64,000 nucleotides of DNA, from positions 77,173 through 141,172 of the forward strand of contig JBAZJG010000001.1 in assembly GCA_041651455.1 (NCBI GenBank), read 5' to 3'. The number at the start of each line of letters is the position of its first letter. Position 1 is the first letter of the stretch. The position numbers and the translations under genes were made by a program. This document shows, one piece after another, positions 41,639-62,835 of the stretch. Source of the DNA: Candidatus Omnitrophota bacterium (GTDB lineage: Bacteria > Omnitrophota > Gorgyraeia > Pluralincolimonadales > Pluralincolimonadaceae). Under the pieces are notes generated by a model. That model was given only the letters and a program-made list of their open reading frames with translations, had not been told where the DNA came from and did no database searches.

Positions 41639-41655
41639 CAAAAGGATATTCAAGA

Positions 41656-43205: not shown

Positions 43206-43864
43206 TGTTGGGGCCGGATTTCAATAAACAATACGAATATGAGAACAGTTTCTACCTTACAGCGCCCATTAACAGGATTAGCAAATTTGTCACTCATCTT
43301 GATCTTTTCAGGAGGATTTCCGGATTGTCAGGAGAGATCGTGGAATGCGGCGTATTCAAAGGAGTGTCGCTGTCCAGATTGATTAAATTCAGAGCATTGT
43401 TTGAAAATCCGCAAAGTAGAAAGATAATAGCATTTGATACCTTCGGAGATTTTCCGGAAGCAAAATACAAGGCTGATGTCAAAAAAAGGCGACAATTTAT
43501 CTCAGAAGCAGGAAGCAAAAGCATAAGCAGGGATGAATTGATCTGCATCCTGAAAAAGCTGGATCTCTACCAGAACATCGAGCTCGTGGCAGGCAATATA
43601 TTGAAAACGGTGCCGCGCTACGTTTCAAGGAACAGACATCTGAAGATAGCCTTGCTGCATATAGATGTTGATCTGTATGAAGCGACGGATATATGCCTAA
43701 AGGAACTGTACCCGTTGGTCGTAAAGGGCGGGATAGTGGTATTGGATGATTACGGCGCCTTTCCCGGAGCTAATAAAGCCATTGACGATTATTTTGTGAA
43801 TAAGAAGGTCAGAATTAAAAAATACCCTTATTCCAACGCCATATCATATGTGCAAGTCGATTGA
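43205..43864 (+). CDS. TylF/MycF-family SAM-dependent O-methyltransferase
   Basis: IVECGVFKGVSLSRL and the C-terminal VVLDDYG are present, and the TAATG overlaps the upstream stop. Confidence 0.62.
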   Translation: MLGPDFNKQYEYENSFYLTAPINRISKFVTHLDLFRRISGLSGEIVECGVFKGVSLSRLIKFRALFENPQSRKIIAFDTFGDFPEAKYKADVKKRRQFISEAGSKSISRDELICILKKLDLYQNIELVAGNILKTVPRYVSRNRHLKIALLHIDVDLYEATDICLKELYPLVVKGGIVVLDDYGAFPGANKAIDDYFVNKKVRIKKYPYSNAISYVQVD

Positions 43865-44379
43865 GAAAGGGCGGTGATAAAATGAGAATACATAAGTATT
43901 ACGATCTTAAGAAGGTAAAATTGATAGTATATGATTTCGACGGTGTTTTTACCGATAATAAGGTCATTCTTATGGAAGACGGGAAAGAAGGTGTTATAGT
44001 AAACAGGTCGGATGGGCTTGCGGTATCAATCTTCAAGAAAATGGGTATTCCTCAAATTATATTGTCTACCGAAAGAAATCCCATAGTTAAGGCCAGATCG
44101 AGGAAACTTGGCATACCAGCCTTGACCTGCGTTAACGATAAGAAGAAGGATCTCTCTTCATATTGCAGGAAACTCAATATCCCGCTGCATTCCGTGGCTT
44201 ATATCGGTAATGATATCAACGACTATGAAGCGATGTTATGCGTGGGATTCCCGATAGCGCCGGCGGATGCGAACAGCCGCATAAAAGGCATAGCGGAAAT
44301 AGTAACTAAAACACGAGGCGGGGAAGGAGTTGCCCGAGAGTTACTCGATATATTTACCCGCGGAATGGGAGTATGCTGA
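43861..44379 (+). CDS. HAD-IIIA phosphatase of the KdsC family (ulosonate-phosphate phosphatase)
   Basis: IVYDFDGVFTD and GNDINDYEAM are present; the protein is about 165-172 aa. Confidence 0.7.
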   Translation: MRKGGDKMRIHKYYDLKKVKLIVYDFDGVFTDNKVILMEDGKEGVIVNRSDGLAVSIFKKMGIPQIILSTERNPIVKARSRKLGIPALTCVNDKKKDLSSYCRKLNIPLHSVAYIGNDINDYEAMLCVGFPIAPADANSRIKGIAEIVTKTRGGEGVARELLDIFTRGMGVC

Positions 44380-46193: not shown

Positions 46194-46196
46194 GGA

Positions 46197-47375
46197 ATGC
46201 ATATGAAACGGATTAATGTGCTTGTGGTCGGTGCGGGTATGTATGTTTGCGGAAGGGGTACAGAGACATTCGGGACCATCATCCCGTCGCTGAACGAATC
46301 AAACAAGTCCGGCGCTTTAGGAAAGATCTTTATAGCCGGAAGGAGCATCTCCGGAATAAGGGCCGCGAAAAAGAAGATTGCCTCACTAAATAAGGCTATG
46401 GGGACCGCGCCGGACCTATCTTTCTATGCCGACGTCAAGAACGGTCCAAAAGGTTATATAAGGGCAATACAGGAGATGCCGAGGCCGGCCTGCGCCATTA
46501 TCGCGGTTCCAGACAACATCCATAAGGATGTAGCAGAGGCTGCGTTGTTGAATGGTATGCATGTGCTGGTCGTTAAACCGTTTGTTGAAACGGTAAAGGA
46601 TGCGAAGGATCTCGAGAAGACGAGGAAAGAACAAGGGCTTTACGGGGCGGTGGAATTCCATAAAAGATACGATGATGCCAACCTGAAATTAAGGGATGCC
46701 ATATCACAGGGTGCTATAGGAGACCCGTTATATTTCCTTGCTGAATTCAGCCAAAGAAAGAGCATGCCGGAAAAAGTATTCAGAAGATGGGCGGCTTCTA
46801 CGAATATTTTCCAGTACCTTGGGATCCATTATGTGGATATGGTCCACTTTGTCACCAAGGCAAAACCGGTACGGGCAATGGCTACCGGCCAGTCGTATTG
46901 GCTGAGATCAAAAGGCATTGATACGTATGATGCCGTTGAAGCCGTTACCGAGTGGAAACTGGAGAACGGAAAAAGATTCGTTTCGCATATACTTACCAAC
47001 TGGATAGACCCCGAGAAGACATCGGCCATGTCAGACCAGAAGATAAAGGTCATAGGCACGAAAGGAAGGTTCGAGTCAGATCAAAAGGCCCGCGGAGTTA
47101 CTATGATTACCGATAAGAATGGCATAGAAGAGATAAATCCGTATTTTTGCAGCCAGTACGGTCCATATGGGAATGTGAGATTCCGCGGCTACGGAATAGA
47201 CAGTATAAAGACCTTTCTCAACGATTCTATAGCGATAGAGTACGGCAGCAAAACCATTGAAGAGCTTGAAAGGGAAAGGCCTACTTTCAATAACTCGCTT
47301 ATACCCACAATGGTGCTTGAAGCTGTTAATACAAGCTTGAAATGCAACGGTAAATGGGTTGAGATAGCCAGATGA
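46197..47375 (+). CDS. Putative NAD(P)-binding oxidoreductase (Rossmann N-terminus)
   Basis: INVLVVGAGMYVCGRG resembles a dinucleotide-binding fold; the rest is unassigned. Confidence 0.35.
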   Translation: MHMKRINVLVVGAGMYVCGRGTETFGTIIPSLNESNKSGALGKIFIAGRSISGIRAAKKKIASLNKAMGTAPDLSFYADVKNGPKGYIRAIQEMPRPACAIIAVPDNIHKDVAEAALLNGMHVLVVKPFVETVKDAKDLEKTRKEQGLYGAVEFHKRYDDANLKLRDAISQGAIGDPLYFLAEFSQRKSMPEKVFRRWAASTNIFQYLGIHYVDMVHFVTKAKPVRAMATGQSYWLRSKGIDTYDAVEAVTEWKLENGKRFVSHILTNWIDPEKTSAMSDQKIKVIGTKGRFESDQKARGVTMITDKNGIEEINPYFCSQYGPYGNVRFRGYGIDSIKTFLNDSIAIEYGSKTIEELERERPTFNNSLIPTMVLEAVNTSLKCNGKWVEIAR

Positions 47376-48415
47376 AAAAGATGTTCGTTCCGCACGAGCG
47401 GTTATCTGTATTTATAAAGAAGGTACTCCTAAATGCCGGGGTACGCGAAGATGTTGCGTATCATGTCAATGAAGGGTTAGTACAAGCGTCACTAAGGGGG
47501 GTCGATTCGCACGGTATAAGGCTATTTCCGCATTATATGGCGTCGGTAAAAGCGGGCAGGATAAATCCCGATCCCGAATATAAGTTCGAGAGGACCTCGG
47601 CCTCTACCGGAAAGTTCGACGCAGACCACACCTTCGGGCACGCCGCCGGCATAGAGTCGGCAAGGAAGGCGGTAGAGCTCGCCAAGGAAGCGGGGACGGG
47701 CAGCATAGCCGTGTTCAATTCGACCCACTTCGGCGCTGCCGCATATTTCACGCTCGAGATAGCAAAGCAAGGGATGATAGGGTTAAGCTTCACTCATGCG
47801 GATTCGCTGATGAAGACATATGCGGGCAAAAGGGCGTTCCTCGGGACGAACCCGATATCCTTCGCCGCGCCGGTGGAGGGCGAAGAACCGTTCTGCCTCG
47901 ACATGGCCACGACGCTTTATAATTTCAACAAGATAAAGCAGCTGAGGGAGCGCAAGCATCCCGCACCTGAAGGCGTAGGCGCGGATACGGAAGGCAATGA
48001 GACGACGGATGCGGATAAGATATCGATGCTGCTTCCAATGGGCGGATACAAAGGATACGGCCTTAGCCTGATGGTGGAGGTGCTTTGCGGGATACTTACC
48101 GGCATGCCATACGGCCCTAATATATCGAGCATGTTCAAGGCGCCGTTGTCGCAGAAAAGGTTCCTCGGACATTTTATCTGCGCGATGAGGATAGACTGTT
48201 TCCAGGAAGAAAAGGTCTTTAAGCGGCGCATGGCCGAATTGTTGAATGAACTGAGGAATGAGCCTCCCATGGAGAAAGGGGTACCGGTGCAGGTGGCGGG
48301 AGACCCGGAGAAGAAGGCCGCTTCGGAAAGGACGAAAGAAGGGATACCGATGGCCGCGCCGGAAGCGGAGGCCTTCATGAAGCTATCCGCCGAATACGGG
48401 GTGGAATTCATATAG
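47372..48415 (+). CDS. Ldh2-family (malate/L-lactate/sulfolactate dehydrogenase type 2) oxidoreductase
   Basis: PMGGYKGYGLSLMVEVLCGILTG matches the Ldh_2 family. The GC content returns to the high level here. Confidence 0.68.
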   Translation: MKKMFVPHERLSVFIKKVLLNAGVREDVAYHVNEGLVQASLRGVDSHGIRLFPHYMASVKAGRINPDPEYKFERTSASTGKFDADHTFGHAAGIESARKAVELAKEAGTGSIAVFNSTHFGAAAYFTLEIAKQGMIGLSFTHADSLMKTYAGKRAFLGTNPISFAAPVEGEEPFCLDMATTLYNFNKIKQLRERKHPAPEGVGADTEGNETTDADKISMLLPMGGYKGYGLSLMVEVLCGILTGMPYGPNISSMFKAPLSQKRFLGHFICAMRIDCFQEEKVFKRRMAELLNELRNEPPMEKGVPVQVAGDPEKKAASERTKEGIPMAAPEAEAFMKLSAEYGVEFI

Positions 48416-50061
48416 TGGAAAGAGCGGACTTCGCGATAATAGTCCCTCCGGCGGGGGTAAGCAATACGGTGTATCCGCCGTACGGGGCGATGTACATCGC
48501 GAGCGCGGCAAGGAAAGCGGGGCTCGAGGTCCGAATAATCAATGTCGATACCGACAGGATATCGAACGCAGAAGTAATTGAACGGCTGAAGGCGCTCAGG
48601 CCGGGATTCATAGGCATAAGCGGGATAGTCGCGCCGTCATATAAATATATCAAGGGCCTCAGCGCGGATATCAAGGCCGCGATGCCGGAGAGCATACAGA
48701 TACTCGGCGGAGGGTTGTCGAGCGCGGCGGAGACGGTCCTGAATAACATGCCGGTGGATTACGTTGTCGCCGGCGAAGGCGATAGGGCAATAACGGAACT
48801 AATCGGCCGCCTGCGGGACGGGAAGGTACCTTCGGACGTCACGGGGCTTTATTACAGGGAGGGTGGCAAATGCGTATTCACGGGCGCAAGGAGACTCATA
48901 GCGAATATAGATGAATTGCCTTATCCGGCGTTCGACCTGGTCGATATGTCCAGGTATATGCCCGACGGGAAGGAGTTCATAGGGTATTTCATCCAGGATA
49001 TAAAGGACAGAAGGATAACGGATCCCGGCCGTAAGGGCGGGATGGTGACGATACCGACGGGCAGAGGATGCTTCGGGAAGTGCTCATTCTGCTTCAGGGC
49101 ATACCCGGGGCTCAGGACCCATTCCATGAAATATGTATTCGACCTCATAGAATACTGCGCGGAGAAATTCGGCACGAGCTACTTCTCCTTCGGGGACGAA
49201 TGCTTCGCGCCGAACAAGGAACATAACCGGAAATTTATCGAGGAGTACAAGAAGAGGAAACTTGACCTTGTCTTCAGGATACTCGGAATGAGGGTCGACA
49301 CGGTCGACAGGGACATATTGCACGCTTATAAGGATATAGGATGCTGGATGATCGAGTACGGTTTTGAGGCCGGCAACCAGAGGATGCTTAATATTATCGA
49401 TAAGAGGGTCACCGTGGAGCAGAACAGGCAGGTCGCGCTCTGGACCAGGGAGGCGGGGATATATACGTCGCCGACGATCGTCCTCGCGATGCCCGGAGAG
49501 ACGGACAGGACAGTCAACGAATCTATAGGGTTCCTTAAATCGCTGAACCTCGGTTATAAGCAGTACCAATGGTCGTACGCCCTGCCGATACCCGGTGCGC
49601 CGCTATATGATTTTGCGAAACTGTCGGGCGCCATCAGGGACGAAGACGAATATCTCGCCTCGCTTGACGGCAGGGTCGCGGGCGCGGGGGTCTTCCATGT
49701 AAACCTTACCGATGAGCCGGACTCAACGGTCGCCGGATGGGCGGACAGGATAAAGGAAGAAGTCGACGCGGATTATTTCAGGAAGGTATACAGGTTCGGG
49801 GCTATCGCCGCGATAGCGCGCCTTCTTAAGAAGATCCGCCTGCACCTAAGGAGGAAGGACCTGAAGGATGTCATCAAAGGAAAATTGAAGAGCATCTGGC
49901 GGGGGCATCCGGGCGGGCAAACCTCTGCCCCTGTCGCGGCCCCGGCAAGGTTCAGGAAGAGAAGCGATATCGTATTCGAGGACCTGATAAAGGGCATGGA
50001 CGACACGGTCATCAACAGGGAGATGGCGCTTAAGAACATAAATACGAGGCTCGCGCCGTGA
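48415..50061 (+). CDS. B12-binding (class B) radical SAM protein
   Basis: An N-terminal cobalamin-binding Rossmann fold (AIIVPP...YIASAARKAGLEVRIINVD) and a radical-SAM motif CFGKCSFC are present. Confidence 0.75.
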   Translation: MERADFAIIVPPAGVSNTVYPPYGAMYIASAARKAGLEVRIINVDTDRISNAEVIERLKALRPGFIGISGIVAPSYKYIKGLSADIKAAMPESIQILGGGLSSAAETVLNNMPVDYVVAGEGDRAITELIGRLRDGKVPSDVTGLYYREGGKCVFTGARRLIANIDELPYPAFDLVDMSRYMPDGKEFIGYFIQDIKDRRITDPGRKGGMVTIPTGRGCFGKCSFCFRAYPGLRTHSMKYVFDLIEYCAEKFGTSYFSFGDECFAPNKEHNRKFIEEYKKRKLDLVFRILGMRVDTVDRDILHAYKDIGCWMIEYGFEAGNQRMLNIIDKRVTVEQNRQVALWTREAGIYTSPTIVLAMPGETDRTVNESIGFLKSLNLGYKQYQWSYALPIPGAPLYDFAKLSGAIRDEDEYLASLDGRVAGAGVFHVNLTDEPDSTVAGWADRIKEEVDADYFRKVYRFGAIAAIARLLKKIRLHLRRKDLKDVIKGKLKSIWRGHPGGQTSAPVAAPARFRKRSDIVFEDLIKGMDDTVINREMALKNINTRLAP

Positions 50062-51829: not shown

Positions 51830-53182
51830 TTGGGAAAGCTCGCTTCTATAATAATCAGGACAAAGAACGAGGAGCGCTGGATAACGCAGTGCCTGCACGG
51901 CGTGTTCGAGCAGGAGTACAAGGATCTCGAGGTCATACTCGTGGATAACGAAAGCGATGACAAGACGCTCGAGAAGGCCGGGCAGTTCAAGCTTGCGAAA
52001 GTCGTGAAATGCACAGAATACCTGCCGGGTAAGGCCCTAAACATCGGAATAAGGGAATCGAAGGGGGATTATATCGTATGCCTCTCGGGCCATTGCATAC
52101 CCGTGAACTCGAAGTGGCTCGGGAACCTGCTTAAGGACCTCGATGACCCCGGGGTGGCAGGCGTATACGGCAGGCAGGAGCCGATGAGCTTCACTCCCGA
52201 TTCCGACAAGCGGGATCTTACGCTCGTCTTCGGGCTCGACAGGAAGGTCCAGCAGAAGGACAGCTTTTTCCACAACGCGAACAGCGCCATGAGGAAAGAG
52301 ACCTGGCGGAAATACCCGTTCGATGAGGCCGTCACGAATATCGAGGACAGGGTCTGGGCGAAAAAGGTCCTCGAACAGGGATACAAGATAATATATGAGC
52401 CGGAGGCGAGTGTATACCATTATCACGGTATACACCAGAACAGCAATGAACAGCGCTGTTCGAACGTCGTGAAGATAATGGAGAAGCTCCACGCGGGATT
52501 CAGCAGGAAGCCGATAGACATGGAGAAGATGGATGTCGCGGCGATAATACCGGTAAAGGGCGCGGCCAGATATATCGGGGATGCGCCGCTCATCGAATAC
52601 ACGATAAAGAGAGCGAAGGAATCGAAATATATAAATAATGTGATAGTCTCCACGGATAACGAAGAGACCGGGCAGTTGGCGAGGAAGCTGGGCGCGAACG
52701 TGCCGTTCATAAGGGACCCTTCGCTCTCGAAAGAGAATATCGACCTCGCGCAGGTCCTGCGGTATACGATGAAGAAGCTCGAAGAGTCGCGCATACTTCC
52801 AGACATCGTCGTCCTGCTGGAAGTCACGTTCCCGTTCAGGCCCGAGGGCCTGCTCGACGACATGATCGCGCAGCTCGCGGAAGGCGGGTTCGACAGCGTC
52901 GTCGCGGCGAAGAAAGAGAACAAGGCTATATGGCAGCAGAAGGACGGTGTGATATCGCAGATAGAGGAAGGCATAACCCCTAGGCAGTTCAAGGAGCCCA
53001 CGTACATTGAGTTGAAGGGTGTCGGCTGCGTGACGCATCCGGAGTTTCTCAGGGAAGGCAAGCTCCTCGGTGAGAAGGTGGGCATCTACGAACTGGACAA
53101 CCCGTATTCGCACCTCGAGGTCAGGAGCGAGGATGATTATAAGCTCGCGTCATCGCTCATAAAGGAGGTATTCGGGAGGTAA
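51830..53182 (+). CDS. Fusion of an N-terminal GT2 glycosyltransferase with a C-terminal cytidylyltransferase-like domain; apparent TTG start
   Basis: The N-terminus SIIIRTKNEERWI...VILVDNESDD matches GT2. The C-terminus AAIIPVKGAARYIGDAPL...EVTFPFRP is cytidylyltransferase-like. A TTG lies at 51830, two nt after the upstream TAA. Confidence 0.55.
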   Translation: MGKLASIIIRTKNEERWITQCLHGVFEQEYKDLEVILVDNESDDKTLEKAGQFKLAKVVKCTEYLPGKALNIGIRESKGDYIVCLSGHCIPVNSKWLGNLLKDLDDPGVAGVYGRQEPMSFTPDSDKRDLTLVFGLDRKVQQKDSFFHNANSAMRKETWRKYPFDEAVTNIEDRVWAKKVLEQGYKIIYEPEASVYHYHGIHQNSNEQRCSNVVKIMEKLHAGFSRKPIDMEKMDVAAIIPVKGAARYIGDAPLIEYTIKRAKESKYINNVIVSTDNEETGQLARKLGANVPFIRDPSLSKENIDLAQVLRYTMKKLEESRILPDIVVLLEVTFPFRPEGLLDDMIAQLAEGGFDSVVAAKKENKAIWQQKDGVISQIEEGITPRQFKEPTYIELKGVGCVTHPEFLREGKLLGEKVGIYELDNPYSHLEVRSEDDYKLASSLIKEVFGR

Positions 53183-55032
53183 TGGCTTTTTCCGGAGTTA
53201 AAAAGCTCGTATTCATCAACGGCATAAACGAGGCCGACGCTTACATGGATGGCCTTCCCGCGGAAGATGCAGCCGGCGATACGCTCCTGATAGCGATGAA
53301 CCCGTCCATCCGTGCGCGCCTGAAGAGGAGAGGGTTCCGCGTCGCCGATACCGCGGATTATTTCACGGCGGATTCCCATGTGAACACGCTGAATAAGTCG
53401 GACGAACTTGTCAAATGGTTCGAGGCGAACGCCCGGTTCGCCGATACCGGGATGGGGGTTAGCGGCGCCTACAGGGATTTTTTCATATACTGGGTAAGGT
53501 TCGCGATGCATTACTGCATCTGGGCAATAGACATGGCATCCGCGGCTATAGAAGCGCATAAGCCGGAGTCGGTATGCGCATACGGCGCGGGTGGCAAGCA
53601 GGCTGTATCGAGTTTGTATATAGAGAACAGCGAAGGTTATTTCGGCCGCCTTGTAAGGGATACCGCGAAGGCGAAAAGCGTAAGATTCATAGACCTCGGG
53701 AACGGGGGCATCGGGCCCCGCAGGGAACAGGGGCCGCGCGCGATATACATGCGGTCGCTGGTAAGGTTCATCCTGCAGAATATAAAGTTCTCTTTATGGG
53801 AGGCCTCGGTATGGGCAAAGAACATATTCCCGGGCAAGAAACCGGTATTCTTCACGACGAGGTTCTATAACCTCGACAAGCTCGCGAAGGAAGCGGTAAA
53901 GGACGGCAGCGGCAAGAGGCCGGAGATACTGAGGGGGCCGGTAATATTCACATACGGCCTGTCCGATGCGGTAATAAAATTGTTCGGCGCCGCCCATTCC
54001 GCCGCGATAATATCGCAGAAGAAGAACTTCGCGGAGCTCGTCGAAAAGATAAGGAAGGACCCATCGGTATTCTCCTATAAGGCGGTATCGTTCGCAGAGC
54101 CCGTTTCAGGGAAGATCGAAGATAATCTGGGCGACCATATAATGGGCCTCATGCTGTGGACCGTGAAACTCAATGATTTTGTCGACAGGTCGAAGGCGTC
54201 ATTGTTCGTCTCCAACGGCAACAGGGCGGACGATGTGATACTGGCTGAATTATGCGCGAGGAAAGGCGTAAGGACGTTGCTGATAAGCCACGGTTCGCAT
54301 GTCCGGCCTAAGAACGTCCCTGAGAGGATAGAATGGGGCGAGCATGGAAGGGCGCTTCTCAGGGCGCCGTTCTCGGATATCGCGCTGCAGACGCCCGTCG
54401 CGGAAGGATACGTCGATGCCTTCAAGACGGAAAGCAGGATGATCAGGACCGGCCCTCTCATATGGGGAAAACCGGTGGAGCGCAGGAAGAGCGGCGTGAG
54501 GACTATCGTGCATGCAGGCACGCCGAAGGCGGCGAACAGCTTAAGGCCGTTCGTCTACGAAACACCCGATGAATACATACGCGGCATATGCGAGCTCGCC
54601 GCGGCTGTGGAGGGGATACCCGATGCGGTGCTTATCGTGCGTTTCAGGCCGTCCTCGGATATAGGGATTGAGGATATCAGGGAACTCGTGCCATTTTCCG
54701 ATAAAGTGAAGCTCAGCACAGACGGGCCTTTTTCGGCAGCGCTCGGGGCGGCGGACCTGCTGGTAAGTTTTTCATCTACGACGATAGAGGAAGCCCTGCA
54801 GAACAGGATACCCGTCCTTCTTTACGGAGGTTCTGGGCGCTATATGCACATAGAAGCTGTCGAGGCGGGAAGCAACGGCGAAATGCCGCGGTCGGCGATA
54901 TACCATGTGAGTAAGGCCGGCGACCTTAGGCCTGCAATAGAGAAGATCCTCGGCCTAGGAACGGACGGTAAACTATTCGACGAATATATATACCCTGAAA
55001 ACGAAAGGCAGCCTCTGGAAGTGCTATTATAA
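53182..55032 (+). CDS. Hypothetical 616-aa protein (candidate glycosyltransferase, unassigned)
   Basis: It is a long in-operon ORF with no confidently recognised motif. Confidence 0.3.
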   Translation: MAFSGVKKLVFINGINEADAYMDGLPAEDAAGDTLLIAMNPSIRARLKRRGFRVADTADYFTADSHVNTLNKSDELVKWFEANARFADTGMGVSGAYRDFFIYWVRFAMHYCIWAIDMASAAIEAHKPESVCAYGAGGKQAVSSLYIENSEGYFGRLVRDTAKAKSVRFIDLGNGGIGPRREQGPRAIYMRSLVRFILQNIKFSLWEASVWAKNIFPGKKPVFFTTRFYNLDKLAKEAVKDGSGKRPEILRGPVIFTYGLSDAVIKLFGAAHSAAIISQKKNFAELVEKIRKDPSVFSYKAVSFAEPVSGKIEDNLGDHIMGLMLWTVKLNDFVDRSKASLFVSNGNRADDVILAELCARKGVRTLLISHGSHVRPKNVPERIEWGEHGRALLRAPFSDIALQTPVAEGYVDAFKTESRMIRTGPLIWGKPVERRKSGVRTIVHAGTPKAANSLRPFVYETPDEYIRGICELAAAVEGIPDAVLIVRFRPSSDIGIEDIRELVPFSDKVKLSTDGPFSAALGAADLLVSFSSTTIEEALQNRIPVLLYGGSGRYMHIEAVEAGSNGEMPRSAIYHVSKAGDLRPAIEKILGLGTDGKLFDEYIYPENERQPLEVLL

Positions 55033-55043: not shown

Positions 55044-56768
55044 ATGAAAGACAGCAGAAGACGATATAAAGGTTTCGAAATCCTGGATTGCACCGTCAGG
55101 GACGGCGGTTACCTCAACGATTGGAAGTTCGACAAGGCGCTCGTCAGGGAGGTATACAGGGCCGTTTCGAAAGCGGGTGTGCCCGTCATCGAGATAGGGT
55201 TCAGGGGGACGGATGAGCATTTCGACAGGAAGAAGTACGGCCCCTGGAGGTTCTCGGACGAGTCGTTGCTGCGCGAGACGATCGAAGGGATAGACGGCGC
55301 GAAGCTCGCGCTGATGGGTGACTTCGGCAGGATATCGGCGGACGACTTTGTCCCGCGCGACGAGAGCGTTGTCGATATCGTGAGGATAGCGGCCCATAAG
55401 AACGATATAGCGGAAACTATCAAGACCCTCGGCAGGATAAAGAAGAAGGGTTACAAGACCTCGCTTAACGCGATGGGATACAGCAACTACACGAAATCGG
55501 AACGGAAGAGGTTCATCTCGATGGTCAGGAAGGCGGGCCTCGATTATGTATATGCGGTGGACAGCTACGGTTCGGTCTTCCCGAACGAGATAGAAGGGCT
55601 CATCAGCCCGCTGCTCGGCATACGCGGGACGAAGGTCGGGTTCCATCCGCATAACAGCCTGCAGATGGCGTTCGCGAACACGCTTGAGGCGGTCCGCTGC
55701 GGCGCGGATATAGTCGATTCGACGTTCTACGGCATTGGCCGCGGGGCGGGCAACCTGCCGACCGAAATAATCGTGCTCTATAAGGAGCTTTTAGGCGATA
55801 AGAAATATAACGCGATTCCGGTCCTCAATTGCATAGACAGGTACTTCCTGCCGATGAGGAAGGAGATCGACTGGGGATACCAACTGCCGTTCATGCTCTC
55901 AGGGATGTACAAATGCCACCCGAACTACGCGAGCGGCCTGATAAATTACAGGGAATATACGATAGACGAGATATGCAAGGCGATGGAGGCGATAGAGAAG
56001 AAGAACCCGTTAGGATACAAGCCGGAGATATTAAAGGAGATCATCGAGGACGGGCTTATCGGAAAGCTGAAGGCCTCCTCCGTAGCGAAAAAGGCCGGTA
56101 AGGCCAGGAAAGCCGGGATACCGGTACCGTACGCGGGCAGGCATGAGGGAAGGGATTTCCTGGTACTTGCCAACGGGCCCGGCCTGAAGGATAACAGGGA
56201 GAAGATAGAGGCGTTCATAAGGAAGACGGACCCCGTCATACTCGGCGCGAACAACCTCTCGGGGCTGTTCGTCCCGCATTATCACGCGTTCAACAACAAG
56301 AGGAGGTTCACGGATTACGCCGGTACCGTTTCCGGTAAGTCGAAACTCCTCATAAGCGAATATTTCCCGGAGGAGTTCATAAGGGAATACACGGACAGCG
56401 ACTACGAGAAACTGTATTACAACGATGTCCTGAACGCTCATTTCGGCATCGATGACGGGGTCATCCGTACGAATTGCAGGACGATATCGGTCCTGCTTAT
56501 CGGCGCGGCGATAGTGATGGGCGCCAGGAGGATATTCGTCGCCGGGATGGACGGCTACCTCGGCCCGGGCACCGAAGGCAAGGCCCTTTATTACAACGAG
56601 AAAGACGAGAAGACCGATAAGCAGATGATCATAGAGAGGCACATGTGGTGCCAGAAGTTCCTGGAGGAGATAGAGGCATACCTGCAGAAGAACGGCAGGG
56701 AGGGTATCCATATCATAACGCCCACGACCTACAAGGCGTTCTATAAAAGCGTGGAAAATTACATATGA
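55044..56768 (+). CDS. Two-domain protein: an N-terminal HMGL-like (aldolase/pyruvate carboxyltransferase TIM-barrel) domain and a C-terminal GT42/Maf(DUF115)-like ulosonic-acid transferase-like domain
   Basis: The N-terminus ILDCTVRDGGY has the DTTLRDG-like motif. The C-terminus FLVLANGPGLKDNREKIEAFI resembles the Cst-II/Maf motif (AGNGPSL). Confidence 0.4.
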   Translation: MKDSRRRYKGFEILDCTVRDGGYLNDWKFDKALVREVYRAVSKAGVPVIEIGFRGTDEHFDRKKYGPWRFSDESLLRETIEGIDGAKLALMGDFGRISADDFVPRDESVVDIVRIAAHKNDIAETIKTLGRIKKKGYKTSLNAMGYSNYTKSERKRFISMVRKAGLDYVYAVDSYGSVFPNEIEGLISPLLGIRGTKVGFHPHNSLQMAFANTLEAVRCGADIVDSTFYGIGRGAGNLPTEIIVLYKELLGDKKYNAIPVLNCIDRYFLPMRKEIDWGYQLPFMLSGMYKCHPNYASGLINYREYTIDEICKAMEAIEKKNPLGYKPEILKEIIEDGLIGKLKASSVAKKAGKARKAGIPVPYAGRHEGRDFLVLANGPGLKDNREKIEAFIRKTDPVILGANNLSGLFVPHYHAFNNKRRFTDYAGTVSGKSKLLISEYFPEEFIREYTDSDYEKLYYNDVLNAHFGIDDGVIRTNCRTISVLLIGAAIVMGARRIFVAGMDGYLGPGTEGKALYYNEKDEKTDKQMIIERHMWCQKFLEEIEAYLQKNGREGIHIITPTTYKAFYKSVENYI

Positions 56769-57499
56769 AAATAATCGGGGTAATACCGGCGCGTTTCAAG
56801 TCATCGAGGTTTCCCGGCAAGCCGTTGGCGGATATATGCGGCAAGCCGCTCGTATGGTGGGTATACAAACAGGCCGTGAAGGTAAAGGAACTCGGAAAGG
56901 TCTATGTCGCCACAGATGACAGCAGGATAGCCCGGGAATGCAAAAAGCTCGCGATACCGTATGTGATGACATCGGGCAGGCACCCGACAGGCACGGACAG
57001 GGTCGCCGAGGTCGCGCGGAAGGTCAAAGCGGATATTTACGTGAATATACAGGGGGATGAACCCCTGCTGAAACCCGCTATGATAAGAAGCGCGATAGGA
57101 CCGCTTTTGAAAAAGAATTCCGGATTCGATGTTACGAACCTGATGTCTTTAATACGCAACCCGAAGGAAGTACCGAGCCCGACCGTCCCGAAGGTCGCGG
57201 TGAACGCGAAGGGTGACGCCGTATTCCTCTCGAGGGCGCCGATACCTTATCCGAAGAGGGGCGGCAACGCGCAGTATTATAAGCAGGTCTGCGTATACGG
57301 GTTCAGGAGGAAGGCATTATTGGCGTTCGGCGGGCTCCGGAGGGGGGCTTCCGAGCTTATAGAGGATATCGAGCTTCTGCGTTTCATAGAGAACGGCATA
57401 AAGGTCAGGATGATCGAAGTGAAGAGCGGCAGCATGGCGGTAGATACGCCTGAGGACCTCGAGGCGGTAAAAAAGATAATATGCAAAAGCCGGGCGTAA
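56765..57499 (+). CDS. kdsB: 3-deoxy-manno-octulosonate cytidylyltransferase (CMP-Kdo synthetase)
   Basis: IIGVIPARFKSSRFPGKPL, HPTGTDRVAEV and IQGDEPL are present. Confidence 0.85.
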   Translation: MKIIGVIPARFKSSRFPGKPLADICGKPLVWWVYKQAVKVKELGKVYVATDDSRIARECKKLAIPYVMTSGRHPTGTDRVAEVARKVKADIYVNIQGDEPLLKPAMIRSAIGPLLKKNSGFDVTNLMSLIRNPKEVPSPTVPKVAVNAKGDAVFLSRAPIPYPKRGGNAQYYKQVCVYGFRRKALLAFGGLRRGASELIEDIELLRFIENGIKVRMIEVKSGSMAVDTPEDLEAVKKIICKSRA

Positions 57500-58977
57500 T
57501 ATTCATCAACCCGTCGCTCGCGCAGGACGGGGGCAAATGCGACGAAGTGCTGTTCCCGTTCGCCGCCATCATGCTGCTCGCGACGATCCTCGATAAGTCG
57601 GGATACGATGTCACGATCATCGACGGCAATATGTATACGTCGGCGGAATGCATCGAAAAGGTCCGCGCGGCGGTAAACGAGAACACGGTCTTCGCGGGTT
57701 TTTCCGTGATGACCTCGCAGGTCAAATGGGCTTATGAAGTTGCCGGCGCGCTCAAGAAGTCGCATCCGGCCCTTAAGATAGTGTGGGGAGGGGTGCACGC
57801 GACTTTATACCCGGAACAGACGGTTGCGGACCCGCTCATAGACATCATAGCCGTCAATGAGGCGTGCAGTTCGATAGCGATGCTAGCGGAGGCGCTGAGG
57901 AACGGCGGTGATCTCTCGAACGTGCCCGGCATATATTTCAAGAAGGACGGAAAAACGATAAAGAACGCGCCGTACCTGCCGGATGACATCACGAAGATCC
58001 CGCAGATAGATTTCTCGCTCTTCGATGCGCTCCGCTACGCCAGGAACAACCTGCTCCCGAAGGCATACGACCTCCCGCTCAAGGATGCAGTGATGATGCC
58101 TATAATCACGGGGCTCGGATGCGCCTACAAATGTTCGTTCTGCATAAACGTCATCCTGAACAGGAAATACCGGTATATGGAAGCGAAGGAGATAGTCGAC
58201 AGGATAGAATTCCTGCAGAAGGAATACGGAGCGAACTTCTTCCAGCTGCTCGACGAGGACTTCTTCATAAACAAGAAGAGGACGATGGATTTCATCGAGC
58301 TTGTCGAGAAGAGGGGGCTCAAGTTCTATTTCAGGCCGTGGATGCGCGTATCGTATTTCAGGGACAATTACATTTCGGAAGAGGTCGCGAAACGGCTCGA
58401 GAAGATAGGCATGGTCACGGCGGTGATGGGGGCCGAGTGCGGCTCGCAGGCGATGCTGGATAAGATACATAAGCAGATAAAAGTGGAAGACACGGTGAAC
58501 GCGGCAAGGACTCTCTCGAAGACGAGGATCGTGCCGAGATATTCGATGATGGTAGGGCTTCCCGGCGAGACGAAGGATGACATACTGGCGACCTACCGGC
58601 TCGCGCTGAAATTGAAGGATATAGACCGCAGGTCGGACATACCGATACTCAGTTTTGCCGCATATCCCGGTTCGCCGATATACAGCGAAGCGGTCAGGAA
58701 ATACGACCTGAAGGAGCCCGGCAGTCTTGCGGAATGGGCGGTCCTCGACTTCTCGGGTTTCCTAGGTTTCTATTCCGCGCAGGGCAAGCCGTGGATATTC
58801 GACAGGAAGATATTCGAGAGGATGAACAATTATTACAATATCGGTTTCCAGTTCTCTCCGAGGAAGACATTGCGCAACAAAGTGCTCTACCCGTTGCTGA
58901 GGTCGCTGATCAGGTTCAGGTTCATTACGGGATGGTTCGGGTTCCCTGTCGAGGAGTTCATACTCGGATGCCGTTAA
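57481..58977 (+). CDS. B12-binding (class B) radical SAM protein
   Basis: An N-terminal B12-binding fold and the motif CAYKCSFC are present. Confidence 0.75.
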   Translation: MQKPGVIFINPSLAQDGGKCDEVLFPFAAIMLLATILDKSGYDVTIIDGNMYTSAECIEKVRAAVNENTVFAGFSVMTSQVKWAYEVAGALKKSHPALKIVWGGVHATLYPEQTVADPLIDIIAVNEACSSIAMLAEALRNGGDLSNVPGIYFKKDGKTIKNAPYLPDDITKIPQIDFSLFDALRYARNNLLPKAYDLPLKDAVMMPIITGLGCAYKCSFCINVILNRKYRYMEAKEIVDRIEFLQKEYGANFFQLLDEDFFINKKRTMDFIELVEKRGLKFYFRPWMRVSYFRDNYISEEVAKRLEKIGMVTAVMGAECGSQAMLDKIHKQIKVEDTVNAARTLSKTRIVPRYSMMVGLPGETKDDILATYRLALKLKDIDRRSDIPILSFAAYPGSPIYSEAVRKYDLKEPGSLAEWAVLDFSGFLGFYSAQGKPWIFDRKIFERMNNYYNIGFQFSPRKTLRNKVLYPLLRSLIRFRFITGWFGFPVEEFILGCR

Positions 58978-60404
58978 CCGCTTCCACGAAAAGGTTGGTA
59001 GAGGAATGCGCGGGTTTGAACGCACGGACCGCGGGACGGCTCGGACCCGGGCTCGGATTCCTTGTATGGGCCTCCCCGACGGCATACAGGGACCCGGAAG
59101 ACACAAAACTCTGGCATCCGGTATATCTTGAAAAGCCGGTTGCGTATAAGCTTCCCGCGCTTTGCTACCTGTACCTGCGTTATGCGCTAATAGGGATGAT
59201 AAGGTGCTTCGCTTACAGGGGTTTCTCCTACGCATACAGGGAGAAAAGCGCGCCGGTGCTTATCGTGATGGCTGAGGAGATAACGGACCATTCGCAGGAG
59301 TTCAGGACCGATTATATAATCGAAGATACTTCGCATCAGGAAGATAAACTCGTCTTCTCGCGGACAAAAAACATCGGAAAGAACTATACTGCGCTGGGCT
59401 TATGGAAGAAGATAATGATCGGAGAAAAGCTGGAAATGTCGCTGATAGCCGATTTCATCCAAAGATTACTGGCAGGACGCCTGAGCATTGCATACCTGGA
59501 ATCGCTGGCAATATTCCACAGGTGGGTGATATCTTATTCGTGGTGTTTTCATTATGATTTCTACATGCTGGTGCATAAGGTGTTAAGCCGCGAACCTGCG
59601 GAATACCGTTCGGTATTCGTACCGCATGAGATGCATTTCTATTCGAGGATGGTCTGGAAAGCGGCTAAAGCGCTGGATGTAAAAGGCATTACCGCGCAGC
59701 ACGCGATGATATTGCCCGAGAAGCTGTGGTATTTCCCCGAGGCCGCCGAAGTAAAGGCCGGATGCGCCCTTCCGGATATATTCTATGTTTACAGCGAAGG
59801 GACTAAAGCCCTCCTAGGCAGGTATTACCCGGGCACGGACCTACGCCTTTGCTGCAGCCCGAGGTTCAGGAAATGGAAGGACTCCGGGCGGTTGGACAGG
59901 TCGCGCGCCGATGCGGTAACGTTCGTATGCGGGATAATGGAGTACGACACCGCGATAATCGTGAAGGCTGCAAAGGCATTGCTTGCGGAGGAATATAAGG
60001 ATAAGAGGAAGATCAGGCTTCGGCTGCATCCCGCCGGTATAATAGGCAGGGCGCAGAGGGAATGGATAAAAGCGGCTTCCGGGGCGGTCTCGGTAGAGCT
60101 GTCGAAAGTGCCGCTTAAGGAGGAGTTTGAGCTGTCGAGGCTGATAATAGGTTCGAATTCCGCGGTTCTGCAGGAGGCGGTGCTTTCGGGCGTGCCGGCG
60201 CTCGCCCTCACAAGCGGGGAATATATATGCGCGTCCGTCCTTCCCGATGAAGATAAATGGACCATAGACGTATCGCGGTTATCATGGAAACGGGTAGAAG
60301 AGCAATCCGCCAGGACGCCGGACCAGGACACGACACGCCGGTTCAGGGCAAACATGGGGCTCGATAACCCGGACCTGACCACGGCAACGGTGGCCGCGGC
60401 ATGA
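58968..60404 (+). CDS. Hypothetical 478-aa protein (candidate transferase). The ATG at 58968 overlaps the upstream stop, and the track start at 58734 is rejected.
   Basis: It is an in-operon ORF with no confidently recognised motif. Confidence 0.3.
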   Translation: MPLTASTKRLVEECAGLNARTAGRLGPGLGFLVWASPTAYRDPEDTKLWHPVYLEKPVAYKLPALCYLYLRYALIGMIRCFAYRGFSYAYREKSAPVLIVMAEEITDHSQEFRTDYIIEDTSHQEDKLVFSRTKNIGKNYTALGLWKKIMIGEKLEMSLIADFIQRLLAGRLSIAYLESLAIFHRWVISYSWCFHYDFYMLVHKVLSREPAEYRSVFVPHEMHFYSRMVWKAAKALDVKGITAQHAMILPEKLWYFPEAAEVKAGCALPDIFYVYSEGTKALLGRYYPGTDLRLCCSPRFRKWKDSGRLDRSRADAVTFVCGIMEYDTAIIVKAAKALLAEEYKDKRKIRLRLHPAGIIGRAQREWIKAASGAVSVELSKVPLKEEFELSRLIIGSNSAVLQEAVLSGVPALALTSGEYICASVLPDEDKWTIDVSRLSWKRVEEQSARTPDQDTTRRFRANMGLDNPDLTTATVAAA

Positions 60405-61330
60405 GACCGCTGGTCAGCGTCCAGGTCTGTTGTTACAATTCTGAAAAGTATCTAGCACAGACGCTCGAGAGCGTAGCGGCCCAGACGTTCAAGGGATGGG
60501 AGCTTGTGATCGTAAACGACGGTTCCACGGACGGGACCGAAGCGATAGTGGACGGTTTCGTGAAGAAGGGCCTGCCGATAACCTACCACAGCCAGCCAAA
60601 CAGCGGTTTCGCGGCCGCGAGGAACAGGGCGGTAGGGTTGTCGAAAGGCGATTGGATAGCAATACTCGACCACGACGATGTATGGAAGCCGGAAAAGCTT
60701 GACGTTCAGCTTAAAGCGGCCGAAAAATACCCGAAAGCGAAACTGCACTTCTCCAACTCGGAATGGTTCACCGACGACGGGAAGATAGCGAGGAATACGA
60801 TAGAGGACGGCAGGTTCTGCTCCGGCATAATAAAGGAGCCCTTCACTGCGTTGCTGTCCGAGGGTTGTTTCATAGACAGCGAGACGGCGCTGATAGACAA
60901 AAAGACGCTTGAAGCCCTCGGCGGTTTCAACGAGAAATACAAGTATATCGTGGATTACGACATGTTCCTAAGGATAGCGAAGCAGGACGCTGTCTGCTAT
61001 GAGGATAAGGTGCTTGCGGGATGGCGTATGCACCCGTCGCAGGCGACGAAGAAGCTTGAAGAGGAGATGACGAGGGAGTATATCGACCTTTTTGAGAAGG
61101 CGCTGAAGGAGAGCGGCCTGCCGGCGGAAGTAAAAGAGAAGGTGAAGAAGTCGATAGTTTACCACCTCAGCAACTACTCGCTTCTCATGCTGAAGAAGGA
61201 GGGAAAGAAGGCGTTCCTGCGCACGCTGCTTGGCGGGATAAGGAAGAGGCCGATGAGCCCTCACACGTACCTGAAGACGCTGCATACGTTCTGCAGGGCG
61301 TATATGGGCGAGGACGTATCGTCAAGATGA
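60401..61330 (+). CDS. GT2 family glycosyltransferase
   Basis: VSVQVCCYNSEKYL...LVIVNDGSTDGT and DHDD are present. Confidence 0.75.
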   Translation: MRPLVSVQVCCYNSEKYLAQTLESVAAQTFKGWELVIVNDGSTDGTEAIVDGFVKKGLPITYHSQPNSGFAAARNRAVGLSKGDWIAILDHDDVWKPEKLDVQLKAAEKYPKAKLHFSNSEWFTDDGKIARNTIEDGRFCSGIIKEPFTALLSEGCFIDSETALIDKKTLEALGGFNEKYKYIVDYDMFLRIAKQDAVCYEDKVLAGWRMHPSQATKKLEEEMTREYIDLFEKALKESGLPAEVKEKVKKSIVYHLSNYSLLMLKKEGKKAFLRTLLGGIRKRPMSPHTYLKTLHTFCRAYMGEDVSSR

Positions 61331-62835
61331 AGGTGCTGTTCATAAATTTCAATATCGGCTCCACACCGGGGATCAATAACGGTATCGCATGCCTATCTGC
61401 CGTCCTGAAGGAGAAAGGCCACAGCACGGCCCTGATATTCCTCTGCGAGCAGCTGGGTTACGGCTTCGACCCGGACAGGATAAAGAAGGACATATTGTCC
61501 GAGGCGCCCGATATCATAGGGCTGTCGCTTATAGAGACGCAGCTTAAGTATGCCAGGAAACTGATGGAAGGGCTCAGGGACTATTATAAGGGCATCGTCG
61601 TATGCGGCGGGCCGTACCCGACGATGGACCCGGAAGGCTGCCTCGCGATAGATGGCGTCGACGCCGTATGCGTCGGAGAGGGAGAGGACGCGCTCGCCGA
61701 ACTTGCCGAAGCGGTAGAGTCCGGCAGGAAGTACGACGGCATAAGGAACATATGGGTAAGGAAGGGCAATGCGGTCATAAAGAACAAGCTGCGGCCGTTC
61801 AAGAGCTTGTATGACCTGCCTCCGGACGATAAGGAGCTCTTTGACCTGGACAGTATACTGCCGCTGAAGAATTACCAGCTCGAGACGATGATAGGCAGGG
61901 GCTGCGTATACCAGTGCAGTTACTGCATAAACGACTCTTATGTGAGGAAATACCGCGATCTTTGCGAACGCAAGGTCGGGCTCAACGATTACATAAGGTT
62001 CAAGGACGCCGGCAGGGCGGCCGCGGAGATAAAGGATACTGTTACGAAACATCCGCAGATAAAGAAGATAGCTTTTATAGATGATAATTTCATAACCGAC
62101 GAGAAATACCTCGCCAAATTATGCGGGGAATATAAAAAGACCGTGGACCTGCCTTTCATGTGCAACGTAAACCCCGCATCCTATAACGAAAGGAAGGCGA
62201 GGATACTGAAAGAGTCCGGGTGCGATGACGTGAGGTTCGGCATCGAGAGCGGCAGCGAGCGCGTCAAGAAAGAGGTAATGAAACGCCCCGTCCCGAACAG
62301 GAGCGTATTGGAGGCCTTCAGGATAAATAAAGAGCTGGATATGATGACCAGCTCATTCAATATGATAGGGCTTCCGACGGAGACGAAAGAGGAGGTCCTC
62401 GAGACGCTGAAGCTCAACGCGCGGATAATGCCGGACACGGTGAAGGTCATGACTTTCTACCCGTTCAAGAACACGCCGATTTACGGGTTCTGCGAGGAGC
62501 TCGGGCTTATCGATACGGAAGCGAAGGAAGAGCTAGATAATTACGATACGTTCACGTGCCTGAAGTTTCCCGATGAGTACCGCCTGTTTCTGAGGAAAAT
62601 GCAGGTCTGCTTCAACTGGTACCTGAACAGCATGCTGGGAAATGAGGCGTCCGGGGCGTACAGGGAGCTCGTGGAGAAGGCGGAGGGCATGTCCGGCGCG
62701 GAATGGGACGGCTATGATTTTTGCGCGGAGGACAGGAAGATATCCGATTTTATGAAGGCGAAGAAACTGGCGCATTACACGAAATATATGAACAGGAGCC
62801 TCGCGGTCAAATGGCCGAGCAGGCACCTGGAATGA
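61327..62835 (+). CDS. B12-binding (class B) radical SAM protein
   Basis: An N-terminal B12-binding fold (VLFINFNIGS...CGGPYPT) and the motif CVYQCSYC are present. Confidence 0.75.
   Translation: MKVLFINFNIGSTPGINNGIACLSAVLKEKGHSTALIFLCEQLGYGFDPDRIKKDILSEAPDIIGLSLIETQLKYARKLMEGLRDYYKGIVVCGGPYPTMDPEGCLAIDGVDAVCVGEGEDALAELAEAVESGRKYDGIRNIWVRKGNAVIKNKLRPFKSLYDLPPDDKELFDLDSILPLKNYQLETMIGRGCVYQCSYCINDSYVRKYRDLCERKVGLNDYIRFKDAGRAAAEIKDTVTKHPQIKKIAFIDDNFITDEKYLAKLCGEYKKTVDLPFMCNVNPASYNERKARILKESGCDDVRFGIESGSERVKKEVMKRPVPNRSVLEAFRINKELDMMTSSFNMIGLPTETKEEVLETLKLNARIMPDTVKVMTFYPFKNTPIYGFCEELGLIDTEAKEELDNYDTFTCLKFPDEYRLFLRKMQVCFNWYLNSMLGNEASGAYRELVEKAEGMSGAEWDGYDFCAEDRKISDFMKAKKLAHYTKYMNRSLAVKWPSRHLE

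Follow-up and report, generated by a model that had tools for sequence, protein, structure and literature searches.

An aldolase-type TIM barrel fused to a DUF115/GT42-like domain in a glycan locus of an Omnitrophota bacterium

A 64,000-nucleotide stretch of DNA from a Candidatus Omnitrophota bacterium (GenBank assembly GCA_041651455.1, contig JBAZJG010000001.1, positions 77,173 to 141,172) encodes a protein that joins an aldolase-type TIM barrel to a small domain related to the GT42 sialyltransferases and the Maf transferases. The whole stretch is called the window here, and positions are counted from its first letter. The reading that we favor, at a probability of roughly 0.45, is that this fusion is a two-enzyme protein for an acidic sugar resembling 3-deoxy-D-manno-octulosonate (Kdo), encoded in a surface-polysaccharide locus that depends on an ATP-binding cassette (ABC) transporter. 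The aldolase would make a 3-deoxy-2-ulosonic acid, a KdsB-like enzyme would activate it with cytidine monophosphate (CMP), and the C-terminal domain (C-domain) would bind and transfer the activated sugar. A 3-deoxy-2-ulosonic acid is favored because the aldolase, the KdsB-type partner, and a fold that uses CMP-ulosonates independently point to the same class of compound.

The fusion family is confirmed and widespread, and it is already found in databases with a structure of one half in the Protein Data Bank (PDB); its function is what we infer here. A preliminary description of the gene had held that a fusion of this kind had not been described. This is right for the function and the literature, where a search found no paper on the fusion family or on the PDB entry 3DXI, but not for the architecture, which is common in databases (hundreds of sequences, the Pfam pair PF00682+PF01973, and 3DXI itself).

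The fusion protein and its two halves

The open reading frame (ORF) runs unbroken on the forward strand from an ATG at 55044 to a TGA at 56766-56768 and encodes 574 aa, with 11 nt separating its start from the end of the upstream gene. An identical protein with the same neighbors is found on three other, independent metagenome contigs, and a whole-protein search returned more than 100 full-length homologues of the same length with both halves; because of these copies and homologues, the fusion is real and not a chimeric assembly artefact. A cluster member with 97% identity carries the NCBI name 'aldolase catalytic domain-containing protein [Candidatus Omnitrophota bacterium]'.

The sequence ILDCTVRDGGY (aa 13-23), which had first suggested an HMGL-like aldolase barrel, does stand at the beginning of such a domain. 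The Pfam HMGL-like family PF00682 matches aa 11-246 (E=3e-22, 79.7 bits against a gathering cut-off of 29), and the top PDB match is 3DXI (E=8e-39, aa 11-320), followed by HsaF 4jn6, 4lrs, DmpG 1nvm, and AmnG 8ih7. Foldseek with a model of the full-length protein gives the same PDB order for this half. The assignment can be made more specific, to the DmpG type: the best NCBIfam models are 4-hydroxy-2-oxovalerate (HOA) aldolases (1e-35 and 9e-30), which score well above models for isopropylmalate synthase (IPMS), homocitrate synthase, and carboxyltransferases. The curated cut-offs for the DmpG/BphI HOA aldolases (TIGR03217, NF006049) are not reached, at 104 vs 286 bits and 123 vs 229 bits, and by sequence the N-terminal half appears to be a related yet distinct subfamily beside these enzymes.

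The metal and pyruvate ligands R19, D20, H201, and H203 are invariant across 24 homologues, with R19 and D20 aligned to the 'RDG' and H201 and H203 to the 'HGH' of HsaF (4jn6) and 4lrs. These invariant residues and the matches to HOA aldolases and 3DXI mark the half as a putative class II (metal-dependent) pyruvate aldolase that is intact and belongs to a subfamily of its own. The half shares with DmpG, BphI, and HsaF, which belong to the class II, DRE-TIM group, the TIM barrel with its helical subdomain and the Arg-Asp...His-x-His site. Unlike these enzymes, and apart from scoring below their curated cut-offs, the fusion family and 3DXI have an invariant 'RDGGY' where HsaF reads 'RDGSH', so that Tyr23 takes the place of a His in HsaF. 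There is also no acylating acetaldehyde dehydrogenase partner (DmpF-type) among the annotated neighbors in the window or in related loci. The setting of the fusion is biosynthetic glycan assembly in contrast to the aromatic and steroid catabolism served by DmpG, BphI, and HsaF, and the aldehyde used by the fusion is presumably a sugar.

The C-domain was likewise placed correctly at the level of fold and superfamily, as GT42/Maf-like. The segment LVLANGPGLK (aa 373-382), earlier likened to the GNGPSL motif of the Cst-II type, does align with the Cst-II motif, together with a downstream G-x-x-x-I-x-x-x-G-x-D-x-Y pattern. Motifs along the domain are ANGPGL (376-381), GAN (401-403), PxYHxFxNxxR (411-421), NCRT (477-480), MGARRIFVAGMDGY (492-505), Y517, and TPT (559-561). 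Searched alone, the window protein finds PF01973 (MptE-like/DUF115, the Maf family) at E=0.002-0.025 and 14.8-18.4 bits, below the gathering score of 34.6, and has no match to the PF06002 profile (GT42, CST-I).

Family-level comparison is clearer. Two alignments were used, one of the window sequence with 19 relatives (A1) and one with 60 broader relatives (A3). PF01973 is matched individually by 19 of 20 sequences in A1 (best 5e-10) and by 39 of 61 in A3 (best 9e-12), so the lack of any GT42/DUF115 similarity that the preliminary description had allowed for was not seen. PF06002 is matched by 4 of the 20 close relatives (E about 0.005). Against the PDB, all eight matches of the A1 profile are GT42 sialyltransferases (E 0.013-0.035), and the A3 profile finds Cst-I (1.3e-3) and Cst-II (2.5e-3) ahead of the MptE kinase 8sd5 (0.029) and SteA (0.054). 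When A3 was compared by hhalign with a GT42 alignment (A4, made from real sequences, the top match being 96% identical to the Cst-II seed used), the probability was 92% with E=6e-7 over the central motif.

The structural modeling and search proposed in the preliminary description bear this out. An AlphaFold2 (AF2) model of aa 345-574 (predicted local distance difference test score, pLDDT, 86.5; predicted TM score, pTM, 0.87) has as its first Foldseek match in the PDB the Maf protein 5mu5 (1.3e-5), then the MptE-type 6-hydroxymethyl-7,8-dihydropterin pyrophosphokinase (HPPK) 8sd5 (2.6e-4) and ST8SiaIII (8e-4), with SteA and Cst-I 2p2v (3e-3, TM 0.53) also found. The C-domain is thus modeled with the single Rossmann-like (GT-A variant) fold of the sialyltransferase type. 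It forms a distinct, minimal branch of ~215 aa that lies below the thresholds of both the GT42 and PF01973 families; its relation to PF01973 appears to be that of a distant branch of the family or clan.

A permissive hhalign run gives a collinear 175-column alignment of the C-domain to Cst-II, of low confidence beyond the central 35 columns. It pairs N377/G378/P379 with N9/G10/P11, N403 with N31, R479/T480 with R129/T131, D503/Y505 with D154/Y156, and Y517 with Y162 of Cst-II, residues which we take to be those of its CMP-N-acetylneuraminic acid (CMP-Neu5Ac) donor site. Cst-I and Cst-II (PF06002) resemble the C-domain in fold class, in the GNGPSL-like and G-x-K-x-I-Y-x-x-G-x-D-x-Y motifs, and in the putative equivalents of R129, Y156, and Y162. 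They differ in that the C-domain has no membrane-association tail, has a much shorter lid, and does not clearly conserve His188; the CMP-sugar that it probably uses as donor is of the KdsB type (Kdo-like) and not CMP-Neu5Ac. Maf (PF01973; 5mu5) is the top structural match, is in the same Pfam family at a sub-threshold score, and can use CMP-Kdo. In Maf proteins, however, which have about 600-700 aa, the DUF115 core lies between an N-terminal and a C-terminal domain, whereas here the core occurs alone and is fused to an aldolase. A transferase function, as first proposed, is thus a candidate role for the C-domain, whose relation to this fold group stands; it lies below the PF06002 and PF01973 thresholds, lacks the flanking domains of Maf, and has no clear counterpart of the GT42 catalytic His.

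Between the halves lies a linker that is variable in sequence. Mean pairwise identity is 63% in the aldolase domain, 57% in the helical subdomain, 24% in the linker, and 60% in the C-domain. In the full-length model (pTM 0.63) the linker is disordered and there is no fixed domain interface, and the two halves are therefore predicted to be joined by a flexible tether.

Distribution of the family and its genomic partners

The preliminary description had also suggested a search for the same architecture elsewhere, and it was readily found, with hundreds of full-length homologues of 55-97% identity spread over more than 12 phyla, archaea included. The whole-protein search gave 717 clusters; the best 120 of these are nearly all 560-610 aa, with 54-97% identity and 98-100% query coverage, and about half of them carry precomputed PF00682+PF01973 assignments. 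Hidden Markov models (HMMs) of the aldolase and the C-domain both match one ORF in 30 loci. Full-length fusions among GTDB species representatives come from Deltaproteobacteria, Chloroflexi, Omnitrophota, Clostridia, Marinimicrobia, Bdellovibrionales, Solirubrobacterales, Elusimicrobiales, Bacteroidia, Planctomycetales, Opitutales, and Abditibacterium, and archaeal metagenome-assembled genomes with a full-length fusion belong to Methanobacteriota and Micrarchaeota. In one Micrarchaeota locus (L032), two neighboring genes encode the two halves separately.

When the C-domain profile was searched exhaustively, 831 representatives were recovered at E<=1e-3. The fusions are a subset of the C-domain family, because most of the best 150 of these 831 are stand-alone proteins of 205-260 aa. 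Copies can accumulate: metagenomic locus L001 has three (4965-6581, 8001-8717, and 10172-10642), one in a divergent 538-aa aldolase fusion with 26% identity to the window protein and two that stand alone. This looks like a paralogue expansion and is reminiscent of maf gene families. The L001 copies sit among a KdsB-like gene, a HAD gene, sulfotransferases, and transposases.

The closest solved structure also derives from a family member. By its PDB title, 3DXI is the N-terminal domain of BVU_2661 from the gut commensal Phocaeicola (Bacteroides) vulgatus, a structural genomics 'putative aldolase' of which only the aldolase half was crystallized. The full gene was found at L094:6001-7533 on the 4.4-Mb contig VOFL01000002.1 (100% identity, 510 aa). 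Its C-terminal ~190 aa are a divergent DUF115/GT42-like domain (VVIIGGGFN..., DIYLVGYDGYPG), matched by HMMs of the C-domain at 1.8e-7 and 5e-10 in a region that takes in the two signature motifs. BVU_2661 is thus a divergent member of the same two-domain architecture from a cultured organism, also in a glycan locus and with its aldolase half as the best PDB match of the window protein. It differs in that the aldolase half is only about 33-36% identical and the C-domain is shorter and much more divergent, with GGGFN for ANGPGL. Upstream, a GT4 gene overlaps the beginning of BVU_2661; genes for a CMP-sialate-synthetase-like protein and a PfkB kinase come after it. A metagenome scan gave 369 relatives, many on contigs labeled human gut metagenome.

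Fusion genes nearly always have a CMP-Kdo-synthetase-like neighbor, in gene clusters for surface sugars. Locus statistics cover 26 fusion loci flanked by 4 kb or more and 52 aldolase-only loci, at a distance limit of 6 kb. A CTP_transf_3 cytidylyltransferase gene is found in 21 of the 26 fusion loci (KdsB-like in 18) vs 1 of the 52 aldolase-only loci, the single case being L032 with its split, two-gene version. In the window, the KdsB-type neighbor exceeds three curated cut-offs (NF009905, 288.8/255; NF003952, 277/193; and TIGR00466, 156.8/155.2 bits). A HAD phosphatase stands beside the fusion in 17 of the 26 loci, though not at the window locus, and the other partners are an Fe-S (LdpA_C-like) protein (11 loci), a B12-radical SAM enzyme (11), and an HpcH/HpaI aldolase (10). 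Recurrent gene orders are Fusion-FeS-HAD-HpcH-KdsB-like, Fusion-KdsB-like-HAD, and Fusion-cytidylyltransferase-PfkB, the last being that of BVU_2661.

A five-gene set of fusion, Fe-S LdpA_C-like protein (~340 aa), HAD, HpcH/HpaI aldolase, and KdsB-like gene occurs in L005, L011-L013, L015, L021, L023, L026, L028, and L030; its extra genes are all absent from the 64-kb window. The presence of two different pyruvate aldolases and an Fe-S enzyme suggests a more elaborate ulosonic-acid product in those loci.

Genes for stand-alone members were also inspected. C-domain genes of this kind in L003 and L090 have B12-radical SAM, HpcH aldolase, 2-hydroxyacid dehydrogenase, and CTP_transf_3 genes as neighbors, the B12-radical SAM gene lying directly downstream in both, and one in L091 is in a deoxythymidine diphosphate (dTDP)-sugar cluster with no CTP_transf_3 gene. 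Stand-alone aldolases of ~320 aa in Paenibacillus adjoin glycoside hydrolases and seem to serve catabolism, unlike the fusion family. At L050:5771-10969 (Paenibacillus psychroresistens), an example from the cultured Firmicutes, a stand-alone aldolase of the 3DXI-like subfamily is found next to a GH38 alpha-mannosidase and a PhyH-type dioxygenase, beside a large beta-helix/3-keto-disaccharide-hydrolase protein.

A possible pathway and the alternatives to it

HOA-type aldolases yield 4-hydroxy-2-oxo acids; when the acceptor is a sugar aldehyde, the products are 3-deoxy-2-ulosonic acids. Enzymes of the KdsB type activate 3-deoxy-2-ulosonic acids with CMP, and enzymes of the GT42, GT29, and Maf folds take CMP-ulosonate donors. 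From the homology and the intact catalytic residues, the N-terminal aldolase would condense pyruvate with an aldose or aldose phosphate to a 4-hydroxy-2-oxo acid, that is, a 3-deoxy-2-ulosonic acid, without a synthase of the KdsA/NeuB type that depends on phosphoenolpyruvate (PEP). The genomic context suggests that a phosphorylated product would, where relevant, be dephosphorylated by the HAD phosphatase. For the third step, in which the translationally coupled KdsB-type enzyme would turn the ulosonate into its CMP derivative, both the enzyme's family and its linkage to the fusion give good support. Finally, to judge by the fold and a conserved pattern like that of a donor site, the tethered GT42/Maf-like domain would bind the CMP-ulosonate and transfer the sugar, possibly to a growing or terminal glycan. 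The fusion would in this way join the first and last steps of a mini-pathway. An earlier suggestion that the protein adds a pyruvyl or lactyl substituent finds no support; the context favors aldol synthesis of a 3-deoxy-2-ulosonic acid followed by CMP activation.

Precedent for the last step comes from Maf enzymes, for which Kdo transfer with CMP-Kdo as donor has been demonstrated (bioRxiv 10.1101/2020.06.03.131540). The mostly stand-alone and sometimes multi-copy nature of the C-domain family, with CTP_transf_3 genes as neighbors, fits an autonomous catalytic transferase. The scheme also resembles the pathways of KdsA-KdsC-KdsB and Kdo transferase and of NeuB and NeuA in combining a three-carbon donor with an aldose (or its phosphate), a HAD phosphatase, CMP activation, and transfer. 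It differs from them in replacing the PEP-dependent KdsA or NeuB with an unrelated HMGL-like pyruvate aldolase fused to a GT42-like domain. The extra partners seen elsewhere (Fe-S LdpA_C-like protein, HpcH/HpaI aldolase, and B12-radical SAM enzyme) suggest a modified, non-Kdo product.

A broader version of this scheme is doubtful in our estimate. In it, the route to the CMP-activated 3-deoxy-2-ulosonic acid would be previously unrecognized and independent of PEP, the sugar would differ both from Kdo and from the classical nonulosonic acids, and the C-domain would be a new minimal family of ulosonate transferases that, from archaea to gut Bacteroides, help to assemble capsule or O-antigen. This minimal transferase family would then include several hundred of the stand-alone relatives found among the 831 representatives. 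The Fe-S protein, the second (HpcH) aldolase, and B12-radical SAM C-methylases may elaborate the sugar further.

Several observations weigh against a two-enzyme protein of this kind. The window protein misses both the PF01973 and PF06002 thresholds, and PF01973 also holds a proven pyrophosphokinase, MptE (8sd5, Foldseek 2.6e-4). The C-domain is small (~215 aa), with a short lid region of low confidence (pLDDT 37-65, aa 501-530), and has no obvious acceptor-binding module. The catalytic His188 of Cst-II has no confidently aligned partner; H533 is five residues off its position and is replaced by Glu or another residue in stand-alone members. The domain is conserved across phyla like the aldolase (60% vs 63%), which is unusual for a glycosyltransferase with variable acceptors, and other candidate transferases (the family of a 616-aa protein encoded directly upstream, and GT2s) adjoin the fusion. 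The full-length model shows no fixed interface between the domains (pTM 0.63), and joining first and last steps with the middle step left separate is less usual than fusing consecutive ones.

The leading alternative is an unlikely one. In it the C-domain would be an MptE-like (pyro)phosphokinase that phosphorylates the aldose, after which the aldolase, HAD phosphatase, and KdsB-like enzyme would act and a separate enzyme, for example the 616-aa protein, would carry out the transfer, in the order kinase, synthase, phosphatase, and CMP synthetase that animals use for sialic acid. The two fused activities would be consecutive, the HAD phosphatase adjacent in 17 of 26 loci would have its place, separate candidate transferases are at hand, and high conservation across phyla suits a small-molecule enzyme. 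PF01973, which includes the MptE HPPK, is the only Pfam family matched by the C-domain, and 8sd5 is comparable in Foldseek rank, similar in size, and found at 0.029 with the family profile. The resemblance to MptE, an archaeal 6-hydroxymethyl-7,8-dihydropterin pyrophosphokinase, takes in the Pfam family name, the fold, and a length of ~215-240 aa, but sequence alignment is limited to the N-terminal GxGPS region (0.029) and the context of the C-domain is glycan, not pterin. GT42 enzymes outrank MptE in profile searches, and it is the GT42 donor site to which the strongest shared motif and the Tyr/Arg pattern correspond. Loci without a HAD (L008, L017, L020, and that of BVU_2661) have a dedicated PfkB kinase, which would make a second kinase redundant there, while common sugar phosphates such as arabinose-5-phosphate need no dedicated kinase, and multi-copy stand-alone paralogues as in L001 are atypical of a pathway kinase.

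It is less probable again that the C-domain is a nucleotide-sugar hydrolase that supplies the substrate, feeding a free reducing sugar to the aldolase much as PseG or NeuC acts before PseI or NeuB. Glycosyltransferase folds have been recruited as sugar-nucleotide hydrolases, PseG being an example; the two fused activities would also be consecutive, and the island around the gene encodes many nucleotide-sugar-modifying enzymes. This has no known precedent in the DUF115/GT42/GT29 fold, however, and the conserved pattern looks like a CMP-ulosonate site and not like a site for a hexose linked to uridine or guanosine diphosphate. Stand-alone C-domain members are also found with no HMGL aldolase nearby (L003 and L091).

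Two further ideas have slimmer chances still. As a noncatalytic sensor of CMP-ulosonate, the C-domain would exert feedback on the aldolase as CMP-Neu5Ac does on GNE; the conserved, putative nucleotide- and donor-binding residues, the lack of a clear catalytic base or acceptor module, and the flexible tether to an enzyme of the committed step would suit this role, but a purely allosteric module is hard to square with the mostly stand-alone family members and the two-gene version in L032, and the entire domain is very highly conserved, with the non-nucleotide motifs PxYHxFxNxxR and TPT no exception. The other, that the N-terminal domain is a Claisen-type acyl-CoA-dependent synthase (IPMS-, homocitrate-, or citramalate-synthase-like) or a carboxyltransferase yielding a branched hydroxy-dicarboxylate substituent, draws on the R-D...H-x-H site shared across the DRE-TIM metallolyase superfamily and on IPMS, homocitrate synthase, and carboxyltransferase models and structures that match at 1e-17 to 1e-8, but HOA aldolases and 3DXI are far better (1e-35 and 8e-39 vs 1e-17 at most), the helical subdomain is of the DmpG/3DXI type, and a KdsB-type partner needs a 2-ulosonate, which an aldolase and not a Claisen synthase supplies.

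The glycan island and implications for the family

The window begins with housekeeping genes (miaB-like, miaA, hflX, hrcA-grpE-dnaK-dnaJ, and accD), and a glycan island extends from about 22 kb with nucleotide-sugar enzymes, aminotransferases, methyltransferases, and GT2s. The island also encodes an ABC-2 exporter pair (35066-37238), NeuB with a KdsC-like phosphatase, and five CTP_transf_3 domains. There are no flagellar genes among the annotated ORFs across the window. The fusion gene, its segments, and its immediate neighbors are listed in Table 1.

Table 1. Segments of the fusion gene and adjoining genes in the window
Feature	Positions	Strand	Basis or remark
Complete fusion gene: aldolase, linker, and DUF115/GT42-like domain	55044..56768	+	574 aa; ORF list, start and stop codons seen in the sequence
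N-terminal TIM barrel (aa 11-250), class II pyruvate-aldolase-like	55074..55793	+	PF00682 3e-22; PDB 3DXI, HsaF 4jn6, DmpG 1nvm
Helical subdomain after the barrel (aa 251-335), common to 3DXI and DmpG-type aldolases	55794..56048	+	3DXI alignment to aa 320; AF2 helices 258-335
Variable, disordered linker (aa 336-361)	56049..56126	+	24% mean pairwise identity; pLDDT<50 for aa 340-357
C-terminal DUF115/MptE-like domain of predicted GT42/Maf fold (aa 362-574)	56127..56765	+	Profiles, AF2 model, Foldseek, hhalign
KdsB-type CMP-ulosonate synthetase	56765..57499	+	ATG overlaps the fusion stop codon (ATGA); three curated models
616-aa protein without Pfam match, directly upstream; candidate separate glycosyltransferase	53182..55032	+	Weak DUF6716 match, motifs
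B12-binding radical SAM enzyme, directly downstream of the KdsB-type gene	57481..58977	+	B12-radical SAM class near fusions elsewhere

The 616-aa protein has the conserved motifs ISHGSHxxP and SFSSTTIEEAL and only a weak match to DUF6716 'putative glycosyltransferase'; it has no sequence match in the PDB and none in Pfam. Homologues adjoin the fusion in L005, L017, L022, and L034. It is one of three large proteins without a Pfam match in the island, together with a 606-aa protein (44373-46193), which has a weak match to TIGR04417 'PFTS motif protein', and a 556-aa protein (58734-60404); these three are possibly unclassified GT-B-like ulosonate transferases. The ORF at 58734 overlaps the preceding radical SAM gene by 244 nt; the gene probably begins near 58968 instead, in line with the start called in L092.

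Two further fusions occur in the island, a GT2 + CTP_transf_3 protein of 450 aa (51830-53182), also conserved in L022 and in L005, a Brocadiaceae locus, and a CTP_transf_3 + SAM methyltransferase protein of 505 aa (38787-40304). Five radical SAM enzymes are encoded, three of the B12-binding type (48415-50061, 57481-58977, and 61327-62835) and two of the SPASM type (37937-38968 and 40304-41638). The abundance of B12-radical SAM genes near fusions and C-domain genes hints at C-methylation of a sugar, which is possibly CMP-linked. Within the island, a block of lower guanine-cytosine (GC) content at 34000-47000 (0.42-0.48 vs about 0.55) spans the ABC-2 exporter, the radical SAM/SPASM genes, NeuB, the KdsC-like phosphatase, and a TylF methyltransferase, and may be a horizontally acquired cassette. 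Outside the island, the first 4 kb of the window has a GC content of 0.41 and contains a 1112-aa ORF without a Pfam match. A MiaB-like radical SAM methylthiotransferase (UPF0004 + Radical_SAM, 3483-5519) is unusual in combining these domains with TPR repeats at the C-terminus and a peptidoglycan-binding SPOR domain.

Kdo and sialic-acid-like sugars influence how bacterial surfaces are recognized by phages, immune systems, and neighboring cells. To our knowledge, all textbook routes to these sugars run through the PEP-dependent KdsA and NeuB synthases. The fusion family and its linkage to KdsB-like genes suggest an unrecognized way of making and using Kdo-like acidic sugars, and the aldolase and the putative compact transferase could serve in the chemo-enzymatic synthesis of unusual ulosonic acids. 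If the favored reading is true, there would be a second route, based on a pyruvate aldolase and physically tied to a minimal sialyltransferase-like domain, in more than a dozen phyla. It would also be found in organisms without lipopolysaccharide (Clostridia, Chloroflexi, and archaea) and in the human gut commensal P. vulgatus, which is genetically tractable. The structural-genomics orphan 3DXI would gain a function, as would a large clade of stand-alone DUF115-like proteins.

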